Positions 10,620 to 34,209 of a stretch of 64,000 nucleotides of DNA are shown here, one piece after another. The notes under the pieces were generated by a model. That model searched no databases. It saw only the letters and a list, made by a program, of their open reading frames with translations, and had not been told where the DNA came from. Positions within the stretch are counted from its first letter, which is position 1. Each line of letters starts with the position of its first letter. The stretch lies in IMG/VR virus record IMGVR_UViG_3300027509_000014; one strand, given 5' to 3'. Source of the stretch: a virus. Both the position numbers and the translations under genes were made by a program.

Positions 10620-11382
10620 TCGATTTTTCTGAGTGGATTTCAATTTTTCTGACATTTCTGGTGGATTTTCACTTTTCTGAGTGGATTTCAATATTTCTGG
10701 GAGTGTTTTTGGCTTTCTGTGCGGCTCCTTTGCGGTTTTGCAGCGGTCTGACCTGCTTCCTTGCAGTATTTGGACGTAGCTACAGTATAAATCCCTGCTT
10801 GGGTAGTCAATAATTAAATCTTTACACTTTCGGCGTCTGATTTGAGCAGCTTGAGTCGCCGCAGGCGTCATATTGTGTATTATGGGTGGCGCAAATTGTG
10901 TATTGTGGTCAAAAAGACCAACGCCGCCCCGAAATGGAGCGGCGTGTCCGAGCTGCAACACTATTATTGAGACGAGCTTTCTAACCGTCTGCTTTTAGTG
11001 TCTTGACCCCTAGGTCTTTGTATCAAGTGCGGAGCTATCATGGCCCACCCTTGGCCTGCTGGTCAAGCCTTTTGGACATGATTGCTCTAGCTTAGGCTCG
11101 ACTTCGCCCAATCCGCCCGACGCCAGCCCAATTTGTAATATATATTTTACTTTTTGCCATTTGCATATATGTATTTTTGCTTTTATCTGCGCCACAATAT
11201 ATATTTATATATATTTTGTCTTTTCCATCTGCCCCATATAGGCGATGCTAAGAGGCCACCAGAGGCTGAGAATGTAATCTCAGAAATGAGAATGTAATCT
11301 TAGAAATGAGAATGTAATCTCAGAAATGAGACAAAATTATCAAAAGTGATACAGGAGTAAGCCGCCTGAGACCAAAGTCCCA
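10620..11382 (+). other. tripartite element copy 1 (TTTCTG box - 526 bp - CCATCTGCC box - palindrome array)
   Basis: Last ATTTCTG ends 10699; CCATCTG at 11225; TGAGA/TGATA at 11267, 11287, 11307, 11327, 11347, 11367. Confidence 0.75.
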
Positions 11383-11828
11383 GACGGCCAGGCAACACCT
11401 ACATGACTGCCCCACCAATATAGCCTCACTTCACCCCAAAAGCAACCTCAATCTCAGATTTCTTTTTCTTTTGGCGGGTTGCTTTCCACCTTTGGCACCG
11501 CTAGGGTTCTTCCTCGGCGGGGCTGGTCTCCTTCTCCTTGGCCAGTCCCGCTTTCTATTTTCCGGTAACCATCATCCAGGCCACTGTCGCCTGCTCGGCG
11601 TCAGGGAATGTCTGATCGAACGCATGTTCCCCACCCCACCAGATCCGATTGGCTTCGGTGTCGAACCTTGCCAGTGTGTTGTTTGCGGAAACTTTCTCAG
11701 TTCTAATCATTTTGTTTCTCCTTGGTGCCTTCGGTTGTTTGATGTGTTGGTTTGTCAGCGCCGCCGCTCTGTGTCTTTATTCTATCTGTATCGTTAAGGT
11801 TCGTCAACCTGTTTTACAGATTCTTTTA

Positions 11829-12113
11829 TCAATCTTCGCCCTTGTTTGAATCTTCCCACCCCTGCCAGGTTATTTCGCTGAACTGCTCATCGTTGATTTT
11901 GTACTCGGGGTTATCTTGCAGAATCTGCAAAAGTCCCTCGCTGGGCGACCATAGACCCTGCCCGCCACGATTGATGTCTGCGGTCAGCCAGCTTGTCAGC
12001 AGCGCTACCTGATCCGAGCTAGCTGCAATAGGCCCAGTGGCTGCGCCGATTTCGTTACTGATGTTGACTGCCTCCATCATCTCTATGTCTACGTCGTTTG
12101 GTATTCCGTACAT
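11829..12113 (-). CDS. hypothetical acidic protein
   Basis: AAAGGGAGA SD before ATG 12113 (MYGIPND...). Confidence 0.7.
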   Translation of the reverse strand: MYGIPNDVDIEMMEAVNISNEIGAATGPIAASSDQVALLTSWLTADINRGGQGLWSPSEGLLQILQDNPEYKINDEQFSEITWQGWEDSNKGED

Positions 12114-12419
12114 TGTTTTCTCCCTTTGTTTGCCTTGCGGCCTTATTGATATCGTTAGTGTATCACGGACCCATAGTAATGTCCAACGATTTATAGATAA
12201 AATCCGAGAACCCTGCCTACTTATTTTAGGGCGCGTCTGGCGCACCCCTCGCCCCGTGGCCTCGTCACTGACTACTGTATCTGGTTGCGTTGAGGTTTGC
12301 AACCTGTTTATGATATCAGATAGATATATCACGGAACACATAATAGCGAGCAGAACCGGTTCTCTGCCCTTGCGGTCTACAGGTCTCTACCGAAGTACTC
12401 GTTTCGATTGTGATTACAT

Positions 12420-12520
12420 CCTACCGGGTTGCCTCGCAAGAAATAACCCGGTAGGGAAATAACCCGGTAGGGAAATAACCCGGTAGGGAAATAACCCGGT
12501 AGGGAAATAACCCGGTAGGA
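12420..12520. repeat. 5 x 16-bp direct repeat AAATAACCCGGTAGGG plus one inverted partial copy
   Basis: Units start at 12441, 12457, 12473, 12489 and 12505; CCTACCGGGTT at 12420-12430. Confidence 0.95.
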
Positions 12521-12839
12521 AAGAATTTATTGAGCTTCCAGCAGGATCTTTCCGCCTTCTTGCAGAGTCAGTCTCAAGTATGAGAGGAAAATCTCAATTC
12601 CGTAGGCTTCCTCTGATGGATTTGGTTCGCTTGCTAACCATTGGATTTGGTTATCGAGTTCGTGTAGGTCTATATATTGTTTTGCCATGTCGTCACCTTA
12701 TCGGTATCATTAGCTAAACGACAACCCGAGCGCCAAGAAAATATAAAAAACATTCTTTCCTGCTAATGGTTGCCTTATTGGTACAGCTATGTATATACTG
12801 GCTACACATTCATGCAACTACTAAATTGGGAGAACGGGA

Positions 12840-13157
12840 ATGGAATTTAAACTATCAAAGATCTTGCGTGGCGCTATCTACCAAATTAAGCGCAAAGGCC
12901 ATAATAAGGGAGAAGTTTTTGACCCCTCAACGGGGGCCTTTTGTGCTCTGGGTCCCATTGAGCAATCGAACGAAGAACTTGGGGATTCTCGCACACACAC
13001 CTTTGTTGCTGCTTGCAATGAAATGATGGCAGACATACGCCGCTTAACTGATTTCAATTGCGTTTCTGCTTTCAACGATGCCGAAGAAACCACTCGTACT
13101 GACGTGCTCCGCATGATGGGTACTACGGCGCGACGCCTAGAGAAGGAAGGCCGATAA
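12840..13157 (+). CDS. DUF6197-like small protein (paralog 1)
   Basis: LRGAI..IK..G....G..C..G...FND...TRTDVL pattern. Confidence 0.7.
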   Translation: MEFKLSKILRGAIYQIKRKGHNKGEVFDPSTGAFCALGPIEQSNEELGDSRTHTFVAACNEMMADIRRLTDFNCVSAFNDAEETTRTDVLRMMGTTARRLEKEGR

Positions 13158-13159
13158 CG

Positions 13160-13573
13160 ATGGGTCAAGCAAAGACACAGAAAGTAAAAAACTGGTTTAA
13201 CGGCCTCAGTGCTGAAAACCAAGAGATAATCAAGAACGCCCCGAGTCCAAAACGTATCGCCAGACGCGTCATTGCGGCCTACAAAAAAGGTCGTTTCAAT
13301 ATGGCATATTGGGTCAACCACGACCAGCATGGATGCACCACGGCAATGTGTTTGTCTGGCTGGGCTATGCATATGGCTGGACTTGAATCAAGAGTGAATG
13401 TTGGCGATATCGGTCAATTCTTTTTCCCTGACGGCACTTTGGTCGCCAGCGAAGAAGCTGGCTCCTACTTGTTGTCGCTTGGCGTAGACGATGACGGTAA
13501 ACCTGAGTCCGATATCTTTTACGCAACCGAGCGCAAGGCTCTGGATTTCATCAAGAAGCGTTGGAATCTGTAG
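13160..13573 (+). CDS. hypothetical protein
   Basis: ORF; CTTAMCLSGWA motif. Confidence 0.7.
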   Translation: MGQAKTQKVKNWFNGLSAENQEIIKNAPSPKRIARRVIAAYKKGRFNMAYWVNHDQHGCTTAMCLSGWAMHMAGLESRVNVGDIGQFFFPDGTLVASEEAGSYLLSLGVDDDGKPESDIFYATERKALDFIKKRWNL

Positions 13574-13575
13574 CC

Positions 13576-13755
13576 ATGCACAACCCAGTTTATGTGCGCA
13601 AAATGCGCAGCCTTATTGCAGAAACGCAGTCGGCTTGGAAGCGTGTTGAAGCAATGGCCAATAGCAACACGCTTACGCAAAGTGATATAGACAAATGGTC
13701 CAATACCCGAGCTAAAGTGGCGGATTTCGCTATATGGATGTATCTCGAAGAATGA
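13576..13755 (+). CDS. hypothetical protein
   Basis: ATG 2 nt after previous stop. Confidence 0.55.
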   Translation: MHNPVYVRKMRSLIAETQSAWKRVEAMANSNTLTQSDIDKWSNTRAKVADFAIWMYLEE

Positions 13756-13970
13756 TATTTGTTCCCCCTTCGGGGTTGCAACACCTTAGCTAAACCGATA
13801 CACTGTAAGCACACCAAACAAAGGAGAAAACACATGGGTGATCCGAAGGATCAGGTGACAGACCTAATGCAGGTGCTGTTCGACAGTGTCGAAGCCGCTA
13901 GGGCCGAGCGTAAGCGGCGACGCTTGGGCGACGAACAAGACAGAGCCGAGATCATGGAGATGTTTGAGTA

Positions 13971-14516
13971 ATGAGCAACTACGTACTGACGGACGGAACC
14001 AATTTCATAGACCGAGACGGTGGCTCAGGCGGCTATCCGTATGAAGTATCCCAATTGACGTGGGCCGCAATGTGGTCCAGCACGACTGCGGCAGAGGCAT
14101 ATCTTAAAATCATGATGAAATCAAGTGCTGCTAAAGAAAAGCTGGCAGGCTTCAAAATAGCCGAAATTGGGATTATCAATATCATTGATCCCGATCTTCC
14201 AACCAGCTCAGAAATTGAAGTCATGGAACGAGAAGTTGCCGACGAACTGATTGCTAACCCCACCATCACGGCGTTTTTTGTGGACTCTGATGGGATTGTG
14301 GATCACTTGGGTTTGTCTTCTTGCTGTGATAATGAAATAGTTATGGCAAATCAACCTGCAACGCATCCAGGGGTTGCTATCTATGTCGATGAGAAACAAG
14401 GTCTGGGTAAAGGCGAAGTAACCGTATGGGGATTTTGGTCGCAACATGATGGAGAAGACACTTTCGAGGCCGAGGGTAACGGTATAACTGTGCCGGTAAT
14501 CTTTGAGCTTGGCTAA
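13971..14516 (+). CDS. hypothetical protein
   Basis: ORF abutting the previous gene. Confidence 0.65.
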   Translation: MSNYVLTDGTNFIDRDGGSGGYPYEVSQLTWAAMWSSTTAAEAYLKIMMKSSAAKEKLAGFKIAEIGIINIIDPDLPTSSEIEVMEREVADELIANPTITAFFVDSDGIVDHLGLSSCCDNEIVMANQPATHPGVAIYVDEKQGLGKGEVTVWGFWSQHDGEDTFEAEGNGITVPVIFELG

Positions 14517-14593
14517 AAGATTACCCTCTTGAGGTTGCCATACCTTAGCCAAACAGATATAGTGCAAGCACGCCACACAAATAGGAGAAACAA

Positions 14594-15004
14594 ATGACTA
14601 AGCCAGAAATCACCGAAGAGCAGTGGACTCAAATTGACGAAATCATTCAGGCGTCCATCGAGCACGAAAACCCTTACCACGGCGGAGCGACCCGCATCTT
14701 TGTGCTTGGCGAACTGCTCAAACTATTTCCGGCATCGGAAGGCTACAGCCTGATTTACGGCTCCTCTGACGATCTGATCTACTCAGATGGCGCAGTGAGA
14801 GTTGAGCATGACTTCTTCGGCGCTAAAGGTGTACTAATTGAATTTGGTGACACCATCATGAGTTGCACTTTCACCGATGAAGGCAATTGGACTTTTGCTC
14901 CCAAAGTTGGTGAAGCTCAGCTCTTGCTAACTCCGGACCAATTTCCCAGAAAGTGTGGTGGGCAACCAGTAATGTACACCGAGATTTGGCTGATCCAGTC
15001 GTGA
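14594..15004 (+). CDS. hypothetical protein
   Basis: TTGCCA-N17-TATAGT promoter and AGGAGA SD. Confidence 0.75.
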   Translation: MTKPEITEEQWTQIDEIIQASIEHENPYHGGATRIFVLGELLKLFPASEGYSLIYGSSDDLIYSDGAVRVEHDFFGAKGVLIEFGDTIMSCTFTDEGNWTFAPKVGEAQLLLTPDQFPRKCGGQPVMYTEIWLIQS

Positions 15005-15155
15005 CCAAAGTAGCGGCGATACTCTATGAGTGTCCAGATGACAGCGCCCCACTTGAAAGGCTCGGGCCAAAAGAAATCGTTTGGCGTTGCAAAGAATGCA
15101 ACCGCTGCTATACTGTCGATGACCAGCCAAAGAAAACAAAAGGGAGAAAGAAGAA

Positions 15156-15485
15156 ATGAGCCAGACTACAAGAAAGATCACCAAGACATCCCAAGTGTTG
15201 CGTGGTGCAATTGAAATGATTAAGCGCCATGGGTACTGTAAGGGCCAAATGTTAGCCAACGATGGTTCGATGTGCGGTTATGGCGCTATGAGTTTCTATA
15301 TGCATGCTCAAAAATTTGATAGAGATCTCTTTTTTGATGCAGAGTCAGAGATGACCAAAGACATACACCGCTTAACTGATTTCAATTACATTTCCGCTTT
15401 CAACGATGCCGGAGAAACCACTCGTACTGACGTGCTCCGCATGATGGGTACTACGGCGAGACGCCTAGAGAAGGAAGGCCGATAA
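15156..15485 (+). CDS. DUF6197-like small protein (paralog 2)
   Basis: Last 127 bp differ from 12840-13157 at 6 positions. Confidence 0.75.
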   Translation: MSQTTRKITKTSQVLRGAIEMIKRHGYCKGQMLANDGSMCGYGAMSFYMHAQKFDRDLFFDAESEMTKDIHRLTDFNYISAFNDAGETTRTDVLRMMGTTARRLEKEGR

Positions 15486-16216
15486 TGACAGACTCAAACA
15501 ACGCCGGGCACTTGAACGTTGGGGACCACAACGCCGGGGACCACAACGCCGGGGACTACAACGCCGGGCACTACAACGCCGGGCACTACAACGCAGGGGA
15601 CCGCAACGCAGGGAGCCGCAACACCGGGCACTTCAACACCGGGCACTACAACGCCGGGAGCAGCAACGCAGAACACAGCAACACCGGGAGCAGCAACGCA
15701 GGACACAGCAACACTGGGCACTGCAACATCGGGCACCGCAACACCGGAAGCTACAACACCGGGAACTACAACGCCGGAAGCTACAACGCCGGGGACCATA
15801 ACATTGGATATTTCATGACCGGTAAAAACACCTCAATGGTGCCGGTGTTCAACAATTCGGCCATGGTCGACCGCAATGAATTCATTGACGCTTTGCCCGT
15901 CTGGATCGACAGTATTGGTTCAGGAACTGAGTGGGTGGAGGCGGAAGAAATGACTGACCAAGAAAAGCTATCTCATGCCGATTACAAAACGACTGGTGGG
16001 TTCTTGCGTGTAGTGTCTTTGCCGGAAGCGTTTGCCAAAGCCTGGGCCGAAGATGAAGCCCAAGACGTAGGACTAGTTGAGGCTCTGCCTGGTTTTGATC
16101 GTGATGTATGGCTAGAAATTACTGAGCTTGATCTGTGGTCTGACGCCGAACCGCCCTGCCGTCCATCAGAAGTAGTGATCGATGGCGTACGCTATGTGAA
16201 GGCTAAGGACCAATGA
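15485..16216 (+). CDS. N-(A/T)-G-x-x pentapeptide-repeat protein with conserved C-terminal domain
   Basis: 21 NxGxx units, then MTDQEK...DYKTTGGFL...LPGFD...EITEL domain. Confidence 0.85.
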   Translation: MTDSNNAGHLNVGDHNAGDHNAGDYNAGHYNAGHYNAGDRNAGSRNTGHFNTGHYNAGSSNAEHSNTGSSNAGHSNTGHCNIGHRNTGSYNTGNYNAGSYNAGDHNIGYFMTGKNTSMVPVFNNSAMVDRNEFIDALPVWIDSIGSGTEWVEAEEMTDQEKLSHADYKTTGGFLRVVSLPEAFAKAWAEDEAQDVGLVEALPGFDRDVWLEITELDLWSDAEPPCRPSEVVIDGVRYVKAKDQ

Positions 16217-16395
16217 CGATAACAGTTATTCTTTACATACTGGGTATGTGGCCCATGATGCATCTTATGACCGAAGAAGCCTACAGATTTTGGCTTTCGG
16301 TCGTGATGGTAGTTATTTGGCCAGTCACAGTGACTCTCTCTGTGGTTCTTGCCTTTCATGCACGGATCTTCTACGACAGAAAGTTTTTCACATAG
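16213..16395 (+). CDS. small membrane protein
   Basis: Two hydrophobic helices. Confidence 0.6.
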   Translation: MTITVILYILGMWPMMHLMTEEAYRFWLSVVMVVIWPVTVTLSVVLAFHARIFYDRKFFT

Positions 16396-16479
16396 AGGTT
16401 GTGTTAAGCTATTCATACCGCTAAGATGTCCATATCGAGCTAGCCAAGTTGGCCAGCCCAACAAATAGGAGATATACAC

Positions 16480-17499
16480 ATGTCATACACCACCGAACTC
16501 GACAAGATCGTCCAAATAACTGACGGTTCTGTCTGGTCTGCCCCTAAGGGTACGCCAAGCCAATCTGTCATCACTGTCGAAGACGTCAGCCGAGTCTTTG
16601 ATTTCGACCTGGTGCAGGTTGAGACCCAAACGGTTCCGTTCGTCCACACGAACAACGATCTAATTGACCGCCTCGACGTCCCCAAGAAGCTCGCTATTGC
16701 TCGGGTTGGCGGAACGCTTCAAGATGGTTCCCCATCGCCAGCTACGGTGCTGAGCACCATGGGCAAGAGCTACAACATCAACCACTACAACCAGTACTTC
16801 CCTGATCTCGCTGAGATCCTGATCGGCCTTGGTTGTCGCATCGTGTTTGCTGGCACCTTGGGTGGTGGCGAACGTGCCTACATGTCAGTATCGCTTCCTG
16901 GCGACGGTTCAGAGCTGTGCCTGCCCGGTGCCGAAAAGGGCCGTACGCTGATCCATATTGGCGAAAGCGTCAACGGTTCAACTTCCTCGCGCTGCTCGCT
17001 GAACTTCGAGCGCCTCCGTTGCATGAACGCTATCAACAGCTCGTTGATGGGACTGAATGCAGTGTGGGCCATCCCTCACACCTCCGGCGCAACCAAGCGT
17101 CTGGCTGAGGCTGAGGCCATGCTGACCAATGCAATTTCTGAGGCCAACCTGATTCATCACACGATTGAGCGTCTTGCAAACGCCGACTTTTTTGAAGCTG
17201 ACTTTGCCAAGCTGGTCAAGTCTGTCATGAAAGACCGCCCCGGTCCAGCCGAAGAGGAGAATCGCAAGCGTGCGGCTTGGGACTCTAAGTTCGACGGTAT
17301 CATGAGCCGCTACCACGCCGACGACATTGACGGCGTGCGTGATACCAAGTGGGGCGCATTCAACGCCCTGCAAGGCTACAGCCAGCACGTGCGTGGCACT
17401 CGTGGCGGAGATCGGTTTAGCCGTTCGGTCAACGAAACTGTGTTCGGCGGCGAAGACCCATTCCTGGCCAAGGCAGCCAAGGAGCTGATCCTGGCATAA
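16480..17499 (+). CDS. DUF932/TIGR03299-like phage/plasmid protein
   Basis: AGTLGGGERAYM, ESVNGSTS...ERLRCMNA, IPHTSG, TKWGAFNAL. Confidence 0.85.
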   Translation: MSYTTELDKIVQITDGSVWSAPKGTPSQSVITVEDVSRVFDFDLVQVETQTVPFVHTNNDLIDRLDVPKKLAIARVGGTLQDGSPSPATVLSTMGKSYNINHYNQYFPDLAEILIGLGCRIVFAGTLGGGERAYMSVSLPGDGSELCLPGAEKGRTLIHIGESVNGSTSSRCSLNFERLRCMNAINSSLMGLNAVWAIPHTSGATKRLAEAEAMLTNAISEANLIHHTIERLANADFFEADFAKLVKSVMKDRPGPAEEENRKRAAWDSKFDGIMSRYHADDIDGVRDTKWGAFNALQGYSQHVRGTRGGDRFSRSVNETVFGGEDPFLAKAAKELILA

Positions 17500-17502
17500 G
17501 AG

Positions 17503-17690
17503 CTAAGATAACTCCTATCTGTTCTGTTAGGTCATAAGGGTGACACGATAAGTGCCTGGAAGCCAGTACGGAGAAACGATAGGGGTAACAGCAGCCCGCA
17601 AGGGCCGCTACCCGCAAGGGTAGTGAACCAGAAGAAGCGATGGCGACTGATGAGGATCGGCCATTGCTTCTTCGCTTTTTCTTCTTTCCG
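17503..17690 (+). ncRNA. candidate structured intergenic RNA ending in a 14-bp terminator hairpin
   Basis: Two GCAA-tetraloop hairpins, crossed complementary segments, GAAGAAGCGATGGC/GCCATTGCTTCTTC stem plus U-tract. Confidence 0.4.
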
Positions 17691-17766
17691 GGGTTGCAAA
17701 CCATATCGTTAAGGTGTAGGATTGTATTTGTTGAGGGAGAGACCCGAGACGGAAAGCACACACACA

Positions 17767-17961
17767 ATGTACAGCAACCGAGATATGAAGGCAATCAAGT
17801 CCGCAGCACGAACTGCTCGCCTGGCTGTGACCGCAGGTGACTTTGGTCGCCGCAACGCAGGTGGCGCTAGTGGCTTCGCTGATCGCCACGACGCAATCAA
17901 CGCCCGTACCCCTAAGCACCGCGGTGCTGGTGGGTCCCACTGGCTCGCTGAGTGGGAATAG
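17767..17961 (+). CDS. small basic protein
   Basis: Downstream of TTGCAA-N17-TAGGAT promoter. Confidence 0.65.
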   Translation: MYSNRDMKAIKSAARTARLAVTAGDFGRRNAGGASGFADRHDAINARTPKHRGAGGSHWLAEWE

Positions 17962-17973
17962 AAAGGAAACAAA

Positions 17974-18192
17974 ATGACATACCCAGTTTACGACACCGAG
18001 AACGAGTACCCAGCTATGTTCGCATCGGCGGCTCTGGATGAGTATCTAGAAGAAGAATATCAGCACAATCTCGCTAGCGACGAGGCGAATTTCGCCCGTG
18101 CTGAGCTTGAGGCCGAGATGGCTGCCGAACGCTACTATGAGCATCAGCGTACGGTGCGGGACTTCAACAGCGATTACGGATATGGTTACTGA
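17974..18192 (+). CDS. small acidic protein
   Basis: AAGGA SD. Confidence 0.7.
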   Translation: MTYPVYDTENEYPAMFASAALDEYLEEEYQHNLASDEANFARAELEAEMAAERYYEHQRTVRDFNSDYGYGY

Positions 18193-18454
18193 TATGACCC
18201 ACAAAACGTCATACGGTAAATTCAGCGGCGGCAAACTGGATGGACAGCGCTGGGGGCTACAAAATTACGGCTACGCTCCTGAGTCAATTTGCATTTGGGG
18301 GCAAACGTACGTTCGCGGTAGCCGAATTGGAACAACATCTTATTGGAATTACCAATTAGAAATGTGATAAATAAGGGCAAGAGGTTGCGACAGCAGCCTT
18401 GTGCCGATAGAGTGTAGTCACACGCAAGCAACCAAACCAGGGAGAAGTGCAGTA

Positions 18455-18718: not shown

Positions 18719-18720
18719 AT

Positions 18721-19272: not shown

Positions 19273-19281
19273 GATAATCAT

Positions 19282-21703: not shown

Positions 21704-21909
21704 CATAATTCGCAGGGCGGTGGGGTTTCCGTGTGGTGTGGACCCCGCCGCCCTTGGTGAGATAAATCTTGGGTGAGATAAATCTTGGATGAGAGAAAAA
21801 TCTTAGATGAGAAATTTTATATTTCTCACCCATTCACGTTGCTAAACCAAATAGCCTCACGATAGGCTGACCGTATCAACAACCAAACGAAGGTATTAAG
21901 GAGAACGCA

Positions 21910-24385: not shown

Positions 24386-24400
24386 CTCGTTTAAACCAAT

Positions 24401-26000: not shown

Positions 26001-26048
26001 CAACAACGCTAAAGAATTAAAATCGACCCGTAGTAACATTGGCACGAC

Positions 26049-26195: not shown

Positions 26196-26226
26196 TAAAT
26201 AAGGACACAAACAAGAAGAAACGCAA

Positions 26227-26445
26227 ATGAGTGATAAAACAGATCAAGTACACAACGATAAGGCGTACAACAAGAACGCACTAACCGCTGCCTATCTCAT
26301 GGGTGCGATAGATGTAATAGGTGATCTTGTTTCCGTTCTTGCAGAATCAGGCTTGGTTGTTGAAGGAACCCCCAACGGCGATGCCATTCTCGATAAGGCA
26401 ATGTCCATGGTCAAAATAATCGAATCTAAGGCAGAAGAGCTATGA
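26227..26445 (+). CDS. hypothetical protein
   Basis: ORF in context. Confidence 0.6.
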   Translation: MSDKTDQVHNDKAYNKNALTAAYLMGAIDVIGDLVSVLAESGLVVEGTPNGDAILDKAMSMVKIIESKAEEL

Positions 26446-26593
26446 GTAGTTGCGACGGAGACATGAACTACGAAAACGGCTATGAAGCTGGTATGGATTT
26501 CGGCAAGCTAAACGTTTGCTGGTAACACCCCAGAGCTGCTTGAACATATCGAGCAAGTTAAGAAGAATACTGATCACAGGTGGTAAAGAATCC

Positions 26594-27380
26594 AATTCAG
26601 TAATCTCTGTAAAAATTGAAATAATTCAATATATCCAATTTCTATATTTCTGACAACGTCGATTTAGACATTTCTGACATTTCTGACATTTCTGACGAAC
26701 TTTCGGTTTTCCTCACTTGGCCGGAAGTTTCGTCGCGTCTGGGGTTGTGTTTCGTCTGAGTGTGCTGTATGCTGTATGTATGGACGATATATTCAAAGTA
26801 CACCTATTGCCCTCAGAGCTTCTATCTGACGCTATTGAGATCATCGAAGATAGAGGCTGGCGACAGTATGGCAATTACGATATTGCGATTAAGGATGGCG
26901 ATCTTTGTGGCCGCGTGTGCATGATGGGTGCCTGTAGCGCCGCTGTGAGTTTGGCTGGCTCAGCCATAATCCCTTACTTCCAAAACCCTTTTGATCAAGA
27001 GCCTGACAATTTTAGAGAGGCTACAGAAGAGTTGGTTGCTCAAGTCAATGGTCGAGTACCCCAATTCTGGAACGACAATGAGGGCCGAACCAAAGAAGAG
27101 GTTATCACATTGCTAAACAAAGCACGAGTCGCTCTAGAAGCCCGAGGCCGCTAAGCCCGCTCCCGAAGCGGCTCGCCCGAGCCGCCCGCCGAACATACAT
27201 ACTATATACTTTTCTGTTTTCCCATCTGCCATATTGGCGCCCCGCTGACCGAACCAGGAGGCTCTGAGACTAAAATCTCAAAAATGAGAAATGTGTATCA
27301 CAAAAGATACGAGTGTCTCAAAGCAGAGACATTGTTCTCATAATAGAGATTACATTCTCAAAAGTGAAACCAAAACGCCA
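26594..27380 (+). other. tripartite element copy 2
   Basis: (CATTTCTGA)x3 with last ATTTCTG ending 26694; CCATCTG at 27222; palindromes at 27265, 27285, 27305, 27325, 27345. Confidence 0.85.
26780..27154 (+). CDS. DUF6197-like small protein (paralog 3, leaderless), filler of element copy 2
   Basis: TTGTGT-N17-TATGCT-N6-ATG; AIEIIEDRGW...VCMMGAC...WNDNEGRTKEEV. Confidence 0.75.
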   Translation: MDDIFKVHLLPSELLSDAIEIIEDRGWRQYGNYDIAIKDGDLCGRVCMMGACSAAVSLAGSAIIPYFQNPFDQEPDNFREATEELVAQVNGRVPQFWNDNEGRTKEEVITLLNKARVALEARGR

Positions 27381-27462
27381 AAAGCGCCTATGCTCGCTAG
27401 CCCCTTTTGGGACCGGCGAGCAATAGGCTAGGCGCTAGGCGTTGCGTTGTCAAGTGATTTTT

Positions 27463-27681
27463 TCATCGTGTCCGATCTAGTGCCACAAATTCGAGCTTGG
27501 TAGCACCATCGTCACCGAGAAAAGTTCGGGTGAAAACCCTACGGCCGTTGTCGTCGCGTGGGTTTCCGATGGCAGCATCGAAACCCCCATCACGAGTGAA
27601 TTCGCTACGTGCGATGAGTCGCACCGGAGTAGGTCCGAAGCGAAAGTGGTCAAATATTGAGTGTGTGTGTGTGTTTCTCAT
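27463..27681 (-). CDS. hypothetical protein (leaderless)
   Basis: TTGACG-N18-TATAAT-N6-ATG on the minus strand. Confidence 0.6.
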   Translation of the reverse strand: MRNTHTHSIFDHFRFGPTPVRLIARSEFTRDGGFDAAIGNPRDDNGRRVFTRTFLGDDGATKLEFVALDRTR

Positions 27682-27828
27682 AACGACATTATAGACACAC
27701 TCAAAACAGAACGTCAACCCGTGTTATAAAGTTTGTGTGTGACAAGCGTCACGTTGCTATTGGGTGTAATTTTGATATGGTGTCTCTATGCAAACGAACG
27801 CAAGTTACTATACAAAAGGAGAAACACA

Positions 27829-28041
27829 ATGGAGTCACTAACGGTAGGCGGAGCCTATGGGCGAGATTACAAGTCCAAAAAGGCCGTTCTGGCAGACTGG
27901 AACGCAAACAAGGATTTTCAAATTCTGAATATGGGTCCTGATTGTGGGAGATATCTCTCAAAATCAGACACCGAAGGGATGATGATTCACGTTCGGTACA
28001 ATGCTCTCATGAGCATTACGTCGGTGCCATCCGAGGAATAA
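27829..28041 (+). CDS. hypothetical protein
   Basis: AAGGAG SD; AYGRDYKSKKAVLADW pattern. Confidence 0.75.
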   Translation: MESLTVGGAYGRDYKSKKAVLADWNANKDFQILNMGPDCGRYLSKSDTEGMMIHVRYNALMSITSVPSEE

Positions 28042-28122
28042 AAGAAACTTTACTCGATAGGTTGCAACGTCGCACCCTATCGAGTAAGGTAATCATCACA
28101 AGCCAATAAGGAGAAACACACA

Positions 28123-28368
28123 ATGAACAAGCCAGCAGATTACACCAAAACATTTTCAAAAGAGGCCGCTTTTGCCTTCGCCGCCATTGTTTGCCCTATG
28201 GGTTTGAGCGGCGACGTTGACGACTGGCACAACTTTCGCGAGTGGGCCGTGGATCACGCTTTCGGGTTTGCATACGATGGGCCAGCGACACCGGCGCTGA
28301 TGAGTCATGTTGCTGAATGGGCCGATATGGAATCGGAATCCGCATGGATGCGAACGCAAGCTGAATAA
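28123..28368 (+). CDS. hypothetical protein
   Basis: Own TTGCAA promoter; AAGGAG SD. Confidence 0.75.
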   Translation: MNKPADYTKTFSKEAAFAFAAIVCPMGLSGDVDDWHNFREWAVDHAFGFAYDGPATPALMSHVAEWADMESESAWMRTQAE

Positions 28369-28392
28369 ATTTTAGAAAATCCCCCCGATAGG

Positions 28393-28470
28393 TTGGCATA
28401 GCGGGCCAAACCCGCTATGCTGGCCTTATCGGAGGGAGGAAGGACGACACGCCCCCTGCATGGCTTTATT
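28393..28470 (+). ncRNA. promoter plus GGAGGGAGGA-leader short RNA, copy a
   Basis: TTGGCA-N17-TATGCT; GGAGGGAGGA starts 10 nt after the -10 box. Confidence 0.5.
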
Positions 28471-28660
28471 TAATATATTTTAGGGGTCCTCCCGTCCTAC
28501 CCCTCTGCGTTTTGCGCTGGGGCCGCTTGGGCTGCTGCCTAAGCGTACCGACTTTACAACGAAAAACCAACTTTCGCTAGAAAGAAATAACCTGTAAAGA
28601 AAACTTTTGTTCCCCAATTTTGGGGTTGGCATAGGGTGTGTAATCCTATAAGATACTCAT

Positions 28661-28879
28661 ATGAACAACACACACACACCAGCCAGCAGAATCATACAGG
28701 ACTTTCTCACCGAAAATCCGGGCACCACGTTTGGTGCGCTGCGATCACACGTGGCGCTTATGGACGCCCTGCCCATGCGCCAGGTGTCTCGCGAGCTTCG
28801 CACATTGCGTGAGCTTGGCGACGTTCTCACGAACGGCATCGACGGCAACAACGGCATCCTATGGTGGAACGAGCGCTAA
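28661..28879 (+). CDS. small HTH-like protein (leaderless)
   Basis: TTGGCA-N17-TAAGAT-N6-ATG; VSRELRTLRELG helix pattern. Confidence 0.7.
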   Translation: MNNTHTPASRIIQDFLTENPGTTFGALRSHVALMDALPMRQVSRELRTLRELGDVLTNGIDGNNGILWWNER

Positions 28880-28984
28880 GACAAAGTTCTCAAAAGAATT
28901 AGCGCTTAGGGTTGCAAGTCGTAGCTTTAAGCGCTAGATTACTACTCACAAGCCCGCAAGGGACACACACAAGGAGTACACACA

Positions 28985-29869
28985 ATGACTACGCAATTCG
29001 CCATCATGAAAACCTCAGAGTATCGTGCAGAAGTCAAGCGATGTAAGGCCGTGCAGGCCAGCCACCGCGTTGCCAACGGTATGGCCGCAACGACTCCTCG
29101 GGTTCTATCCGCACCTAAGGATATCTCAAAACTCGATAAGTCCGACACGGCTATCTACGGCCTAGCATTGGCCCAGAGTCGTCTTAGCGGGTTCAACGTT
29201 TGCCCACACTCCACACCGGACTGTGTGTCGTCTTGCGTAGGCAAGAATGGCAACGGTGCATTTAAGAGTGTCAAGCATGCTCGCATCGTTCGGACAAAAT
29301 TCTGGATCGACCACCCACAAGAGTTTCGCTTTCTCATAGCTCACGAAATCCGTTCGGCGCTGGTGCGCCATAACGGAAACGTAGAGTTTCGTCTCAACAC
29401 GTTTAGCGACGTTGAGTGGCAGACAGTAGCGCCAGAATGGTTTGCTATCGACGGCGCACACTTTTACGACTACACCAAAAATTGGGATCGTGTCGATATC
29501 TTCGGGAATTACTCACTGTGCTACTCGGTGACCGAACACACCACCGATGAGCAGATTGTCTCACGTTTGAGCGCAGGCGATACCGTTGCTATGGTTATCA
29601 ACGTACGCGGTGGCTACATCGCCAAAACTACAGACCTTCGACCTATCCCGACCAGCTTCGCAGGGTTCGATATCATCGATGGCGATAAGGAAGAAAACCG
29701 AGCCAGCGATCCCGCTAGCACGATTGTTGGCCTACGGGCAAAAGGATCTATGTTGCGCAAGAGCATGGCGCGACGTGTTGACACCATCGACGGTACGCTT
29801 GCCGTACTGCCAAAAGAAGCGCACACGGTTGCGGTCAAGCTTGGCCGCGGAGGTAAGGTACTGGCCTAG
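28985..29869 (+). CDS. GP88-like protein (radical-SAM-like fold)
   Basis: VCPHSTPDCVSSC; FRLNTFSDV; FYDYTK; IVGLRAKG. Confidence 0.8.
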   Translation: MTTQFAIMKTSEYRAEVKRCKAVQASHRVANGMAATTPRVLSAPKDISKLDKSDTAIYGLALAQSRLSGFNVCPHSTPDCVSSCVGKNGNGAFKSVKHARIVRTKFWIDHPQEFRFLIAHEIRSALVRHNGNVEFRLNTFSDVEWQTVAPEWFAIDGAHFYDYTKNWDRVDIFGNYSLCYSVTEHTTDEQIVSRLSAGDTVAMVINVRGGYIAKTTDLRPIPTSFAGFDIIDGDKEENRASDPASTIVGLRAKGSMLRKSMARRVDTIDGTLAVLPKEAHTVAVKLGRGGKVLA

Positions 29870-30187
29870 GCTAAGGCCGGTCTTAGATCGGCTCTAAGGG
29901 TTAGTGTGTGACCCTTAGAGCATCATTGCAGTGAGCTAGTCGGTATGTGTGGCCGACTAGCTCACTTTGCTTTTTGCGCTCATTTTTGAGAGTAAAGTCT
30001 CAAACCTAAGACTCACTAAAAAAACTCGGGATTAGCCCTCGTGGTCCATTCTGACTTAAAAAAAAAGAAAGTCAAGTAGTTTTGTAAAGTTTCTTTTACC
30101 CAAAATTGGGGTGCGAAATAGGTTGCTATTCTGTTGGCAATGTGTCTATAATGTGCATACACACAACCGGCTACGGAAGGCTTAGTA

Positions 30188-30526
30188 ATGATAGACATAA
30201 ATACAGATGAGGTATTTGACACCAGGGATTTGATTGAATGGCTCGAAGATGAAGATAACAAAGAAGACGATCCAGAACGCTATCAATTTATGAAGAGATT
30301 AGCCTCTGAACTCATCGACAACTGTGTCGATTATAGCTACGGTGAGACCGTCATCCCTAAGTCGGAATTCACCGAATACGCCAAGCAGCTGGCCGAAGAT
30401 GTCTTCGAAATGCCGAGTGACCTTCGCTGGCCGCTCACCTGCATCGATTGGGATGAAGCGGCCAGCGAGCTACTGATAGACTACACAGAGATTGAATTGG
30501 ATGGGGAAAACTGGTTTGTGAGATAA
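30188..30526 (+). CDS. acidic ArdA-like antirestriction protein candidate
   Basis: Very D/E-rich; EYAKQLAED...IDWDEAASEL resembles the ArdA C-terminal domain. Confidence 0.6.
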   Translation: MIDINTDEVFDTRDLIEWLEDEDNKEDDPERYQFMKRLASELIDNCVDYSYGETVIPKSEFTEYAKQLAEDVFEMPSDLRWPLTCIDWDEAASELLIDYTEIELDGENWFVR

Positions 30527-30812
30527 GGCTTTTCAAAACATTTCTGAAACATCCCGTCGCTCCAAAAGTGGGGTGGCGGGATGTTTCTCGGTTTTGGGGT
30601 TGTAAAGTCGTGGCCCCTAGGCTATGATGTAATCACACAAGCAAAAGGAACACACAATGAGCTTTTCACACTGGTATAACATCGACAACATGACCGACGA
30701 GGAAATTTGGGAACTCGAAGAGTCGTTGGCCGACGCTGAAATCGACCGCCAGATTGACGCACGTCGAGAGGAGGCTTGGAACTAAATTCTCACAAAAACT
30801 TTACCCCCGAGG

Positions 30813-30951
30813 TTGCCAAACGGTAGTCTCGGGGGTACACTTCGTTTTACGGAGGGAGGAACGAACACACCGCCCCTGCACTGGTTTGATTTACAAAATC
30901 TCTGGGTGGCCCGTCGTAGTTCATTCTGACGACCTTACCGTCGAATGTCAA
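30813..30951. ncRNA. convergent promoters enclosing GGAGGGAGGA-leader short RNA, copy b
   Basis: Plus: TTGCCA-N17-TACACT. Minus: TTGACA-N17-CAGAAT. Conserved sequence between them. Confidence 0.6.
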
Positions 30952-31043
30952 GACATTTGTAAAGTTTCTTTTACCCAAAGTTGGGGTTGCAAACCGTTTG
31001 TGGTCTGCCTATAATGTAGTCACACACAAGTAAAGGAACCAGT

Positions 31044-31376
31044 ATGAGCAATTATCCCGCACCCCTTACCATCGCAGAACTTCGCACAGCTCGCAGCTCG
31101 GTACTGTTCTCACTTGATCAAGCCACCACCAACGGTGAGCGCGCTGCGCTGCACCTCCTCGTGAAACGTCTTGATGCACTGATTCCTGCCGAATTGCAGG
31201 AAGTCGCCCGCATGGCCGACATCGTTGTACGGTACCATGCAACAAAGGACTATATCGACGCTATTGGCGACCTCCGCGCCCACTACCCAAGCCTGTCACT
31301 GCGTGAGGCTTATCACGCTGTAAAGAAGGCATACGACGACATCGGTCGCCCTATCCCTGCTCGGCCATCTCGATAG
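31044..31376 (+). CDS. hypothetical protein with bL12-CTD-like C-terminus
   Basis: YIDAIGDLRAHYPSLSLREAYHAVK. Confidence 0.65.
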   Translation: MSNYPAPLTIAELRTARSSVLFSLDQATTNGERAALHLLVKRLDALIPAELQEVARMADIVVRYHATKDYIDAIGDLRAHYPSLSLREAYHAVKKAYDDIGRPIPARPSR

Positions 31377-31412
31377 TTTCACGTGAAACATCCCGCCGTC
31401 CCAAAAATGGGG

Positions 31413-31550
31413 TTGCCAAAAGGTAGCCTCGGTGATAAAGTTTTGCCTACGGAGGGAGGAACGACCACACCACCCCTGCACTGGTTTGATTTATAAAATC
31501 TCTGGATGGCCCGTCGTGGTTCATTCTAACTGACCGATAGGCAAAGTCAA
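31413..31550. ncRNA. convergent promoters enclosing GGAGGGAGGA-leader short RNA, copy c
   Basis: Plus: TTGCCA-N17-TAAAGT. Minus: TTGACT-N16-TAGAAT. Offset 600 bp from copy b. Confidence 0.6.
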
Positions 31551-31658
31551 GAGATATATAAAAGTTTGTTTTACCCAATATTGGGGGTGCGAATAGGTTG
31601 CGAAAATGTTTGCAACCTGCTTATAATATAGACACACACATCCAACGAAGGAACTAGT

Positions 31659-32153
31659 ATGATAATCGAGACCGAATACAAGACGGCAAGCAACCTTGCC
31701 GAATACCTAGACCACAAGGCGACCGACCCCGAATGGGTATCCGAACAGGGTGGCCAATGGGCTTGGAACCATGCTGGCCTCATTGCAGTCACCCGAGTCC
31801 GTGAGTACGTCATTCTCACTGGTGACACCTTCTACGAAGGTGTCATAAAGTGCGAGAATGTTGACGCCGCGATCAAACTCGAAATGGAGTATGGTGTCTA
31901 CAGTGAGCATGACATTACGGTCAACGCTTACGAACGTCGGATCTACGATGGCGATTCACGCCAAGGCATCGACGTACCCAAAACCGATGGCGGTGATGCC
32001 GAGTGGCTCAAGCTGGCCGCTAAGGCTGTAGATGAGTACTGCGAGGCAACAGGGTGCTACCCCACCCCATGGGTTAGCTATGACTACTACGGAACCCCTG
32101 TGGGCTACCTTCACAACGATGGCAGTGTCAACCAAATGAAGGTGTTGTCATGA
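31659..32153 (+). CDS. hypothetical protein
   Basis: Own promoter; GAAGGA SD. Confidence 0.75.
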   Translation: MIIETEYKTASNLAEYLDHKATDPEWVSEQGGQWAWNHAGLIAVTRVREYVILTGDTFYEGVIKCENVDAAIKLEMEYGVYSEHDITVNAYERRIYDGDSRQGIDVPKTDGGDAEWLKLAAKAVDEYCEATGCYPTPWVSYDYYGTPVGYLHNDGSVNQMKVLS

Positions 32154-32257
32154 CTTAGGCACAACGACTCCAAGCCCGCCACCCCAGTTTTGGGGTGGCG
32201 GGATGTTTCTCGTTTTACAGGTTGCTTTTGTGTTGGCCATGCTCCTATAATGTTGAT

Positions 32258-32806
32258 ATGACAAACACACAAACAATCCCAAGCCCACGGACCCAAGCAA
32301 TTGCAGCGATGGACGCCAAAATTGCAGCCGGTGAAAAATTCGCTCCGCACGAGGTAACTTCGGAGCTGCACCGTATTGCGGTCAACTACGTTGAGCACTA
32401 CTCTGGCGATTTCTCCTACTTGGTGTCGATGACTGATCGTCTTGCCAACGGCTACGCAATCAACGCCAATCAGGCTAAGGGCATTCTTAACTGCTTGCTG
32501 GCCGAGCGCCGTCGCAATCAGCGCAGCACCGAGCCAGCGCCCGAGGGTATCCACCTTTTCCAAAACGAAGTTTACAAAGTACAGGCTAACAAGGCCGGGA
32601 CCGCAACGTACGCCAAGAAGCGTGTGGGGAGCCGTTGGGAGTACGTTGGCCAAGTAGCCTCACTGTCACCAGCCACGCTGCTTACATTGGCTCAAGCCAA
32701 GGCCATCGGCCATGAGACGGGCCACTGTGTAATGTGTGGCCGTGAGCTTACGGTCCCCGAGTCCGTCGCCGCTGGGATCGGCCCAGTGTGCGCTAAGAAG
32801 TTCTAA
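32258..32806 (+). CDS. DUF6011-like zinc-finger protein (leaderless)
   Basis: CVMCGRELTVPESVAAGIGPVCAKK; TATAAT-N6-ATG. Confidence 0.8.
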   Translation: MTNTQTIPSPRTQAIAAMDAKIAAGEKFAPHEVTSELHRIAVNYVEHYSGDFSYLVSMTDRLANGYAINANQAKGILNCLLAERRRNQRSTEPAPEGIHLFQNEVYKVQANKAGTATYAKKRVGSRWEYVGQVASLSPATLLTLAQAKAIGHETGHCVMCGRELTVPESVAAGIGPVCAKKF

Positions 32807-33024
32807 GACACTCGCTAGCGCCCCCGCCATAATGGCGGGGGTTGTTTGCGTTTTGCTCACCGTCGAGCACGCCAGTGTGCGCAGACTGTGGGCCTGCAAA
32901 AACTCGGGGTGGCCCGTCGTGGTTCATTCTAACTGACCTATAGGCAAAGTCAAGACATTTGTAAAGTTTATTTTTCTTCCTCGACAGGTTGCAAAACCGT
33001 TTGCGATGTGCCTATAATGTGTAC

Positions 33025-33201
33025 ATGACAAACACCAAAGACCCACGTTCCTTCAAAGAAGCACTTGATGCCCTCCACTCATCGGCTGACCGCAACGGAC
33101 GCCTACACCATGGGGATCACTCGCACGGCCGACAGGGCCAAGCGCTTGACCGTAGCGCAGCCAACGACTTGCGCATTCTGAGCAAGTTTTCCCAAAGTTG
33201 A
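33025..33201 (+). CDS. small His-rich protein (leaderless)
   Basis: TTGCAA-N18-TATAAT-N6-ATG. Confidence 0.65.
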   Translation: MTNTKDPRSFKEALDALHSSADRNGRLHHGDHSHGRQGQALDRSAANDLRILSKFSQS

Positions 33202-33367
33202 TAATCCAATTGCGAAAAGAGTCCCGATCACTTAGGTCGGGACCCTATCGCGTTTTGAGTTTTGTGACAAAATCTTTGGGTGGCCCGTCGTGGTTCATTC
33301 TAGTATATCCACAGACAAAGTCAAGACATTTGTAAAGTTTGTTTACTCACGACACTCATAAAAACCG

Positions 33368-34209
33368 AATTCAGTAATTACTGAGAAATTCAAAAAATTC
33401 AATATATCCAATTTCGGTATTTCTGGTGAGACTGAAATACCTTTTTCTGACATTTCTGACATTTCTGAGGCAATCTATCAAAACCTGATAACAAATTATC
33501 TCACGACAGGGTTGGCATTTCATCACTGCTGCCCCTATAATGTCTATACACACCTAAACGAAGGAAACGCTATGAACGTAACCGCAGACAACCTGAACGA
33601 TTTCATGACACTTGACCGTGTGGTCACTGTCCACAACGACGGCACCGTGAGCGATGCGCCAGGCCTAAGCGCCCCTGAGATTTGGGATGGCGAACTCGAA
33701 TCTTCCAATTGGGAGATCTTTACTAACCATACGGCCCAGCAGGGTGGTGGGAGCACCATGCACAACTGCGAGCATATAGGCGGCAGGCTGGCTAATGACA
33801 TACTGGCCGAACCGGGCACCTATGCAGCCGTAGGGTGTTGGTGGCATCCTGAGACGCTAGACGATGATGTAGATATGGAGGGATGGGCGGTAGTCAAGCT
33901 GATCGATGCCTAATCGGGCCTTAGCGCCTAGCGCCCCGAGCGCCGCGCCGGTGCGCCGCCGAAAAGTATAGTATATATATACTTTTGTTTTCCCATCTGC
34001 CATATTGGGGCGCCCCGGCCGAGAAAGAGAAAATTTTTGAGACTAGAATCTCAAAAATACCCCAATTATAGTATACCACGAAAACTTGGGGGTGTCAACC
34101 CCCAATATTGGGGTATAGCGATATTTTCTTGCGCGAGAATATTTTCTCACAGCTGAGACATGGGTTTCACAGCTGAGCGCGCAATATCAGTTTTGAGAAT
34201 AGCCTCTCT
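33368..34209 (+). other. tripartite element copy 3
   Basis: CATTTCTGA repeats with last ATTTCTG ending 33467; CCATCTG at 33993; palindromes at 34038, then 34134, 34154, 34174, 34194. Confidence 0.85.
33572..33913 (+). CDS. hypothetical acidic protein, filler of element copy 3
   Basis: TTGGCA-N18-TATAAT promoter; GAAGGA SD. Confidence 0.75.
   Translation: MNVTADNLNDFMTLDRVVTVHNDGTVSDAPGLSAPEIWDGELESSNWEIFTNHTAQQGGGSTMHNCEHIGGRLANDILAEPGTYAAVGCWWHPETLDDDVDMEGWAVVKLIDA

Follow-up and report, generated by a model that had tools for sequence, protein, structure and literature searches.

In the genome of an uncultured marine siphovirus-like phage, three loci carry a module whose anatomy resembles that of a lambda-type origin of replication. 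The loci lie in a 64,000-nucleotide stretch of IMG/VR record IMGVR_UViG_3300027509_000014 (hereafter the window), which is part of a 77.3-kb contig; each consists, from left to right, of a repeat array (box A), a filler, a GC-rich tract followed by a TA-rich tract and a conserved sequence (together box B), and an array of TGAGA-N6-TCTCA palindromes (box C). We read boxes B and C as iterons plus an unwinding element, a module that a promoter behind box A would reach; this reading is offered tentatively, its chances being in our judgement somewhat short of even.

Palindromes matching TGAGA-N6-TCTCA with at most one mismatch numbered 19, against 2.2 expected, and none of 100 shuffled sequences reached that count; all 19 lay within 11267-34209. 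Each locus kept its sites in one 20-bp phase, with in-phase positions at 11267, 11287, 11307, 11327 and 11367 in copy 1, at 27265, 27285, 27325 and 27345 in copy 2, and at 34134, 34154 and 34194 in copy 3:

Copy 1 box C, 11267-11382, no strand: five palindromes sharing one 20-bp phase; spacers GAAA or AAAG.
Copy 2 box C, 27265-27380, no strand: five or six units in one 20-bp phase.
Copy 3 box C, 34038-34209, no strand: a palindrome at 34038, an insert of ~80 bp, then units at 34134, 34154, (34174) and 34194.

With four to six units per locus, the arrays share with the lambda-type origin a set of at least four dyad-symmetric repeats spaced by about two helical turns. They begin 42, 43 and 45 bp past the CCATCTG motif of box B (a B-to-C spacing of 42-45 bp in all three copies), as a first-pass annotation of the DNA had stated, and keep the 20-bp phase; the units of copy 1 contain in-frame TAA codons. 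Such an array would present four to six dyad-symmetric sites to a dimeric winged-helix initiator and, because the sites stand two helical turns apart with A-rich spacers, the bound dimers would line one face of the DNA.

The same palindromes could alternatively serve a phage transcription regulator as operator arrays and have nothing to do with replication, an explanation that we regard as doubtful, though serious enough to be followed through the evidence below. A dimeric protein on the 20-bp-phased palindromes would then block or insulate the loci at points where rightward cassettes meet leftward units. In favour of operators, box C is a module of its own, not tied to boxes A and B, and occurs at three further places:

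Fourth, variant array, 21757-21830, no strand: TGAGATAAATCTTGG twice, TGAGAGAAAAATCTTA and TGAGA-N11-TCTCA, without boxes A and B.
Single exact palindrome TGAGAGGAAAATCTCA, 12581-12596, no strand: within a 53-amino-acid minus-strand open reading frame (ORF).
Single exact palindrome TGAGAGTAAAGTCTCA, 29987-30002, no strand: between a terminator and a copy of a 78-nt repeat family.

The fourth array stands directly upstream of a promoter of the TTGC(A/T)A...GATAnnCT type, with a terminator on its other side, and the two exact single sites (12581 and 29987) compare with ~0.06 expected. The palindromes do not, however, overlap sigma-70-like promoters as the lambda OL/OR operators do: the arrays of copies 1 and 2 contain no such promoter. 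The exception is copy 3, in which the insert between units carries a hairpin and a leftward promoter (TTGACA-17-TGgTATACT, 34098-34070); this strong promoter is directed straight at the first palindrome, as an operator would have it.

Box B lies immediately to the left of each array:

Copy 1 box B, 11094-11245, plus strand: C-rich GC tract at 11094-11129, a 95-bp AT-rich tract, then CTTTTCCATCTGCC.
Copy 2 box B, 27140-27241, plus strand: GC tract, TA tract, then TTTTCCCATCTGCCATATTGG.
Copy 3 box B, 33913-34012, plus strand: GC tract, TA tract, then TTTTCCCATCTGCCATATTGG.

A CCATCTG-type box behind a GC tract and a TA tract had been described for all three copies in the same orientation, and this description was borne out: CCATCTGCC was present at 11225, 27222 and 33993, always on the plus strand, and nowhere else in the ~77 kb that were rebuilt. 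In copies 2 and 3 the GC tract, box B and the first palindrome make up 130 bp in common, at 72% identity. Duplex stability was computed by a nearest-neighbour scan of the 64-kb window, in which the TA tract of copy 1 (11196) was the least stable 20-mer, the AT tract of the same copy (11130) the second least stable 100-mer, and the TA tract of copy 3 the fifth least stable 20-mer; the two most stable 40-mers were the GC tracts of copy 3 (first) and copy 2 (second). The TA or AT tract is located 45-60 bp from the first box C unit. The plus strand is pyrimidine-rich over box B, with C exceeding G over the GC tract in all three copies, and box B is therefore strand-asymmetric. A very meltable tract clamped by very stable DNA, 42-45 bp from the iterons, looks like an unwinding element; this element would comprise the TA tract and the pyrimidine-rich conserved 20-mer, and the very GC-rich DNA on both sides would confine melting to one spot.

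If the arrays are operators, box B would instead be the conserved end of a transcription unit, yielding a C-rich and then U-rich RNA whose termination is possibly Rho-dependent. The filler genes are without hairpin terminators and the GC tracts are C-rich on the plus strand, both of which suit this proposal. On the other side, folding of both strands revealed no shared RNA structure or intrinsic terminator in box B of the three copies, and operators leave unexplained both the stability extremes of box B and its fixed 42-45 bp coupling to box C.

Other identities for box B were considered and rejected. It is not a promoter, as no acceptable -35/-10 pair was found on either strand; as an RNA element it fared no better, Rfam matching tRNAs only and both-strand fold z-scores ranging from -1.5 to +0.7. 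The reverse complement of box B starts with ATG, and a minus-strand ORF (MADGKT...) could be read from there; it has no ribosome-binding site and its peptides are not conserved. Searches for box B elsewhere returned only chance or unrelated matches: in 86 viral contigs the 18-mer matched where an unrelated gene (MADGK...) begins, a scan for box B plus palindrome gave three matches, all chance, and a degenerate box B gave 11 matches in coding DNA of metagenome contigs, again chance. No paper was found that contains TCTCAAAAATGAGA.

Evidence from outside the phage came from a scan for the fixed box C pattern TGAGANNNNNNTCTCARAAATGAGA in a collection of one genome per prokaryotic species. This yielded 32 loci, 12 of them cyanobacterial; cyanobacteria constitute a few percent of the species in the collection. 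The other loci were single or double palindromes, in about the number expected by chance (9, as a rough estimate). Two to five units made up the cyanobacterial arrays, in which half-sites, 6-bp core, A-rich 4-bp spacer and 20-bp period were those of the phage, and side-by-side reading found the features of the repeat unit to be common to the phage and all 12 arrays. At locus L165 a single strict site was followed by units with TGCGA replacing TGAGA, and the degenerate last unit of phage copy 2, TGAAACCAAAACGCCA, resembles the last cyanobacterial unit, TGCGAAAATCAACCGCCA.

In 11 of the 12 loci the array adjoins a conserved 87-amino-acid N-domain (hidden Markov model (HMM) E values of 1e-38 to 1e-49). 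It is in frame with this domain in ten, inside genes of 258-529 amino acids, and adjoins it in a different frame in the eleventh (L138). The N-domain bears the motif FYPLT..LR..KLTAAEWRIWSYLVEIDPWGDRY...SKATFYRAIAKFQELEIFDFQD.GF.IRNL.G; the array follows directly, translating as SLKNETxFSxMRxxSQxCEN repeats, and a variable C-terminal part comes next. The predicted structure of the N-domain is a winged helix (predicted local distance difference test score 88.9; order H-H-H-H-beta-beta), for which the best fold matches were the winged-helix domains of MarR, ArsR, CRP, CodY and ORC. The family has no model in Pfam, NCBIfam or PHROGs, and at least 241 members were found in a large protein database, every one annotated as hypothetical. 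Members were located as follows:

Family loci: L141, 4520-5461; L160, 1571-2347; L145, 5162-6724; L167, 2257-3399; L161, 3957-4841; L169 (pANACY.03), 5726-6484.

In two of these (L161 and L167) a gene for a DnaB-type replicative helicase (E = 3e-71) comes next, with a few bases of overlap; at other loci a phage-type Dam methylase gene follows and an XRE-type regulator is divergent upstream. One member resides on the Anabaena cylindrica plasmid pANACY.03, in the order regulator, small gene, family gene, 1009-amino-acid gene, and when the B-C region was compared to plasmids by blastn, the one short match was the array inside the pANACY.03 gene. Because a DNA-binding N-domain, in-gene sites, a variable C-terminus and an adjacent helicase gene occur together, we read the family as initiators and the arrays as iterons; from its sequences and predicted fold, the family is likely to be a lambda-O-like initiator with an intragenic origin.

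The occurrence of this exact repeat type within initiator-like genes, near helicase genes, argues against operators. Together with the stability of box B, it also gives comparative support to the earlier proposal of multiple replication origins with a melting element, and we infer that the phage sites may fire as origins. The sites need not be intragenic elsewhere: a six-unit intergenic array in Laspinema (L137) has no family gene within 8 kb, and detached arrays are therefore not unique to the phage. Two apparent box counterparts at these loci were set aside. A CCCATCTGCC match in the Laspinema locus is within coding DNA and was taken as chance, and TCAGACT repeats past the cyanobacterial arrays, considered as a counterpart of box A, had only a 5-mer in common with it and were conserved coding sequence in homologues, leaving a lead only.

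Several observations weigh against an origin. The phage arrays are intergenic, flanked by small and unrelated genes and not by an initiator gene, and in-frame repeats past a FYPLT...SKATFYRAIAKF N-domain are absent from the phage. A six-frame search of the 77 kb found no winged-helix initiator homologue (best HMM E = 0.08), the best hhalign probability was 19%, and no recognition-helix motif was present in the same 77 kb. Three or four such origins in one phage would be unusual, and the fourth array and the single sites, which have no unwinding element, suit a transcription regulator better. The TA tract is merely ~20 bp long in copies 2 and 3, and, judged by the A-rich strand of the spacers, the AT tract lies on the side of the array opposite to that in lambda ori. 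Finally, ThyX, TerL, DUF6197, GP88 and DUF6011 point to actinobacterial-type phages rather than cyanophages; given this actinophage-like gene content, the link to the cyanobacterial family is by motif only.

The missing initiator raised a further explanation, namely that the arrays are orphan iterons which borrow or titrate the initiator of a resident plasmid or prophage, so that the phage would replicate at the expense of the resident element or disable a competitor. An iteron-centred conflict between a phage and its parasite is described for ICP1 and PLE (PMC8263062). Orphan iterons would account for three or four arrays in 77 kb with no initiator homologue, and the detached intergenic arrays in Laspinema are a parallel. 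The initiator gene may nevertheless lie in the missing part of the contig, which is incomplete because an identical capsid gene is recorded on a 112.7-kb contig; moreover, no resident element is known and the idea is pure inference, and we consider it decidedly improbable. In favour of the origin-like reading, the phage proteins scanned included no recognisable DNA polymerase, primase or helicase, which makes use of the host replication machinery, and a need for an origin, plausible.

For the origin-like reading, transcription toward the module matters as well as the module itself. Upstream, TTTCTG repeats were present at all three loci, as previously noted:

Copy 1 box A, 10558-10720, plus strand: about six 20-bp units (TGGATTTCAAtTTTTCTGAG) with eight TTTCTG; AT-rich.
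Copy 2 box A, 26594-26695, plus strand: AATTCAGTAAT, AATTCAATATATCCAATTTC, then three tandem CATTTCTGA.
Copy 3 box A, 33368-33468, plus strand: 78% identity with copy 2.

Copies 2 and 3 have 110 bp of box A in common at 78% identity, including AATTCAGTAAT and AATTCAATATATCCAATTTC, the two further sequences that the first-pass annotation had seen in both. Copy 1 is a different array, in a region that ranks with the window's least stable 100-bp segments; its eight TTTCTG lie within 10570-10719, one of them at 10714 and so beyond the repeat that had been taken as the last. The anchor of copy 1 had already been called less certain, rightly so for a distinct array of ~20-bp units with a misplaced last repeat. 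Box A was found solely in the company of B and C in the ~77 kb. The element as a whole was also considered as a transposon with terminal inverted repeats and rejected, the complementarity between A and C being short only. To the left of copy 1, in a near gene-free 2.5 kb, about seven ACTTGTA-containing repeats with an 11-bp period occupy window positions 10235-10320.

Between boxes A and B, the fillers contain the following:

Copy 1 promoter-like site, 10761-10791, plus strand: weak TTGCAG-19-TATAAA, read by eye and putative, directed toward box B, with no ORF behind it.
Copy 1 filler terminator hairpin, 10921-10945, minus strand: strong, ten pairs of which eight are G-C, then a T run.
Copy 2 filler, 26745-27154, plus strand: weak promoter-like TTGTGT-17-TATGCT and a DUF6197 gene.
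Copy 3 filler, 33512-33913, plus strand: promoter TTGGCA-18-TATAAT (11 of 12 matches) and a 113-amino-acid gene.

The fillers had been described as non-homologous, and they are: those of copies 2 and 3 proved unrelated by BLASTP (E = 5.7), the copy 2 gene (26780-27154) belongs to DUF6197 (E = 1.7e-15), the 113-amino-acid gene of copy 3 (33572-33913) matched no family, and copy 1 contains no convincing ORF. Hidden homology was rejected, since the ungapped identity of 0.34 compares with a shuffle maximum of 0.334 and came mostly from the flanks; a GGATGGCGA motif at an equal codon offset in both filler genes was treated as chance. On the minus strand of the copy 1 filler, a promoter-like TTGACC-18-CATGAT (11066-11037) stands ~100 nt from the hairpin, and the two could define a short leftward RNA. 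At 26768-26782, and again at 27681-27693 on the minus strand, a -10 box is followed after 6 nt by an ATG without a ribosome-binding site, the layout of a leaderless mRNA.

A rightward promoter-like site is thus predicted 44-62 bp past box A in each of the three loci, those of copies 1 and 2 being weak. To the right of each box C there is in turn a leftward unit. In copy 1 it is a 51-amino-acid gene with a good ribosome-binding site behind TTGACG-17-TAGAAT at 11807; in copy 2, TTGACG-18-TATAAT at 27717 precedes a 72-amino-acid ORF or an RNA, and a hairpin resembling a terminator stands immediately before box C; in copy 3 it starts from the TTGACA-17-TGgTATACT promoter at 34098, on the 80-bp insert in box C. 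With rightward cassettes on one side and leftward units on the other, the B-C modules therefore lie where transcription converges. Beside the copy 2 array, a minor contig from the one public run that contains the phage (depth 5.8 vs 41.8) skips or replaces 236 bp of the window, at 27435-27670, which is the body of the leftward 72-amino-acid ORF. Still farther right, copies 2 and 3 have a 45-bp piece in common (box D):

Box D, copy 2, 27738-27782, plus strand: palindrome GTGACAAGCGTCAC (27741-27754) at the -35 of an extended -10 promoter.
Box D, copy 3, 34258-34302, plus strand: the same palindrome (34259-34272) and promoter, before a gene at 34355.

Its GTGACAAGCGTCAC is by its sequence a candidate for a second operator type, distinct from TGAGA-N6-TCTCA.

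If the modules are origins, each would end a short rightward transcription unit that starts 44-62 bp behind box A, and transcription would enter the module much as pR transcription activates lambda ori; the filler would be a transcribed spacer able to carry any small gene, and box A might be an upstream regulatory or accessory protein-binding array. With operators, box A would be the upstream control region of the cassette promoter, and the loci would be duplicated regulatory flanks around swapped genes whose equal length is chance. Two features of the region accord with the latter: the leftward unit to the right of box C at every locus, and an early region rich in other repeated regulatory cassettes that flank unrelated small genes.

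One of these cassettes is the 78-nt repeat, five of which lie in the window at 30020-33346 with a conserved leftward promoter (TTGACT-16-TAGAAT); four of the five, back-to-back with rightward promoters, border small genes that are unrelated. The promoter pair of the fifth (33269-33346) is split by box A, the box A of copy 3 being located between the leftward promoter of the repeat (33324) and the filler promoter. In contig L113 of the Joint Genome Institute (JGI), ~31570 and 32898 are directly adjacent, which points to a deletion or to a jump of the assembly from one 78-nt repeat to another.

The first-pass annotation had also proposed a fixed ruler, measuring 526, 528 and 526 bp from the last ATTTCTG to CCATCTG. 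The arithmetic was correct; a ruler common to the three copies was not established, as the value for copy 1 depends on the anchor. Alignment of the three loci, which had been put forward as a check, showed homologous flanks for copies 2 and 3 and a longer distance in copy 1: homologous anchors (17 identical bases at 10644-10660 and 33442-33458; 10544-10575 matching 26621-26652) make the A-to-B distance of copy 1 27-80 bp longer than that of the others. The 526 bp of copy 1 carries no weight, because its 20-bp units place some unit within 10 bp of any target, and the ruler therefore rests on copies 2 and 3.

In those two copies the distance from the last CATTTCTGA to the first TGAGA is exactly 569 bp, made up of different parts: 84 vs 103 bp for the 5' part, 375 vs 342 bp for the gene, 68 vs 80 bp from gene end to CCATCTG, and 43 vs 45 bp from CCATCTG to TGAGA. 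A simulation based on the phage's own early-gene lengths put the chance of an equal span at 0.13-0.24% and that of a difference of at most 2 bp at 0.65-1.2%, for a comparison that is post hoc and involves one pair of copies. Box B moves by 2 bp while the span as a whole stays constant, so that a constraint, if there is one, would act between A and C. With a span of exactly 569 bp in both copies, a constraint on length is conceivable.

A true long-range ruler would have proteins at boxes A and C held exactly 569 bp apart by looping or wrapping, whatever the sequence between. The agreement of the span despite differing 5' untranslated, gene and 3' lengths, its low probability by chance (0.13-1.2%), the 2-bp movement of box B within it and the absence of box A from any site without B and C all favour such a ruler, as does the identity of the box A 9-mer CATTTCTGA with the reverse complement of the inter-palindrome junction in copy 1. 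The TTTCTG that is the truly conserved motif of box A is, however, not conserved in box C of copies 2 and 3. Only two copies are informative, copy 1 fitting by chosen anchor only; the comparison was made post hoc, and no relatives of the phage were found in which the span could be followed. Known looping systems constrain helical phase and not absolute length. We regard a ruler as unlikely. A composite of the two ideas, in which the three loci are transcription-activated origins or initiator-loading sites whose arrays A and C stand exactly 569 bp apart with any DNA between, strikes us as rather unlikely too; the spacing being held regardless of sequence, the spacer would then be free for swappable small genes, and the initiator would come from a gene in another part of the phage or from another element.

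Packaging cut sites at a set distance from a recognition site and stepwise ejection stops of the T5 type had been suggested as well; strand-specific nick sites may be grouped with them. The three copies do share one orientation, and a TerS-like protein with a weak helix-turn-helix match adjoins TerL, although no link from this protein to the sites emerged. The contigs aligned to the region, which do not show molecule ends, gave no evidence of any. The sites lie a long way from the terminase genes, arrays of this type go with initiator genes elsewhere, and three pac or cos sites per genome would be counterproductive; we consider these functions, for which no support was obtained, very improbable.

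As to the phage itself, the genes identified comprise TerL, a major head protein, a tape-measure protein, six or seven tRNA genes, ThyX and SSB. Nearly all genes between 12.8 and 38 kb are small and on the plus strand, and the 10.2-12.8 kb region is packed with repeats and almost non-coding. Scans of ~70 phage proteins against Pfam and PHROGs disclosed no convincing helix-turn-helix or ribbon-helix-helix protein. Four assemblies carry identical copies of the phage, and the 112.7-kb contig carries the identical ThyX protein in addition to the capsid protein; the two ends of the phage contig do not overlap, and circular closure was not obtained. Megablast and blastn against phages gave no DNA match, and protein and DNA searches found no diverged relative: the best relatives of TerL, GP88 and the capsid protein are 26-33% identical, and boxes A, B and C are all absent from them. 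For TerL the closest relatives come from Microbacterium phages; for ThyX the closest named ones come from Solirubrobacteraceae. The signals for the host conflict, the iteron type being cyanobacterial and ThyX, TerL and several small gene families being of actinophage type.

Two further features were noted. Three DUF6197 paralogues are present (12840-13157, 15156-15485 and 26780-27154), of which the first two have a 141-nt stretch at the 3' end in common at 91% identity. At window positions 12433-12523 a 16-bp unit, GAAATAACCCGGTAGG, is repeated in tandem in ~5.6 copies; the ENA assembly is ~47 bp shorter here (an estimated three units or so), and two JGI contigs end ~80 bp short of the repeat. 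Either the number of units varies or the repeat collapsed during assembly, as may be supposed from these differences.

Should the B-C modules be origins, the phage would have three or four lambda-type origins without an attached initiator gene, each fed by a promoter-plus-gene cassette, and would offer a natural system for the study of origin multiplicity and of transcriptional origin activation. The family of at least 241 unannotated cyanobacterial winged-helix proteins, whose genes hold arrays of their own presumed binding sites, supplies a hypothesis as to where replication starts in cyanobacterial plasmids and prophage-like regions, whose origins are of importance to vector design but poorly defined. 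Why two unrelated fillers should give an identical span of 569 bp is unexplained, a small puzzle that lends itself to sharp tests.

The closest known counterparts are lambda ori, in gene O, and the P22 ori, in gene 18. Lambda O and P22 gp18/gp12 combine a DNA-binding N-domain, in-gene sites and an adjacent helicase-related gene. Like these origins, the phage loci have at least four dyad-symmetric sites at intervals of about two turns, separated by A-rich spacers; beside them is an AT-rich, putative unwinding region, and promoter-like sites would direct transcription toward the module. The arrays related to box C in cyanobacteria match the in-gene layout as well, and the pairing of initiator and helicase genes (the DnaB-like gp12 in P22). 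Unlike lambda and P22, the phage has its arrays in intergenic DNA, in three or four copies, with no initiator gene nearby; its putative unwinding tract is a short TA run, with a clamp of 45-50 bp of ~80% GC and a conserved CCATCTGCC box; and the cyanobacterial initiator-like family is without a match in Pfam, NCBIfam or PHROGs.

More than one dispersed set of initiator repeats with an AT-rich region per genome is also seen in SPP1 (oriL/oriR) and P4 (ori/crr). The repeats of SPP1 and P4 are direct and their initiators are known and phage-encoded, in which they differ from the present phage, and we know of no fixed spacer reported for either. In RK2 oriV, the order of iterons, AT-rich tract and GC-rich tract corresponds to box C, box B and the GC tract read from right to left. 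Iteron plasmids such as RK2 have direct repeats that are bound by monomers, together with DnaA boxes; the phage sites, by contrast, are palindromic, and no convincing DnaA box was seen. The PeSL cassettes of T4 resemble the loci in another respect, namely small, unrelated genes set between conserved flanks, here box A to the left and boxes B, C and D to the right, among many repeated intergenic cassettes. Here both the conserved flanks and the unrelated ORFs are present; the right flank differs, however, in being a GC/TA/box/iteron module and not a terminator stem-loop, box B having no conserved stem-loop, and evidence of mobility is confined to the one variant contig, L113, which concerns another place. 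The statement that no described element has this layout was too strong for boxes B and C, which conform to the lambda-type arrangement of iterons beside an AT-rich region. What is new in the B-C module is a lambda-type architecture that is detached from the initiator gene, present in multiple copies, and furnished with a GC-clamped TA tract and a conserved box.

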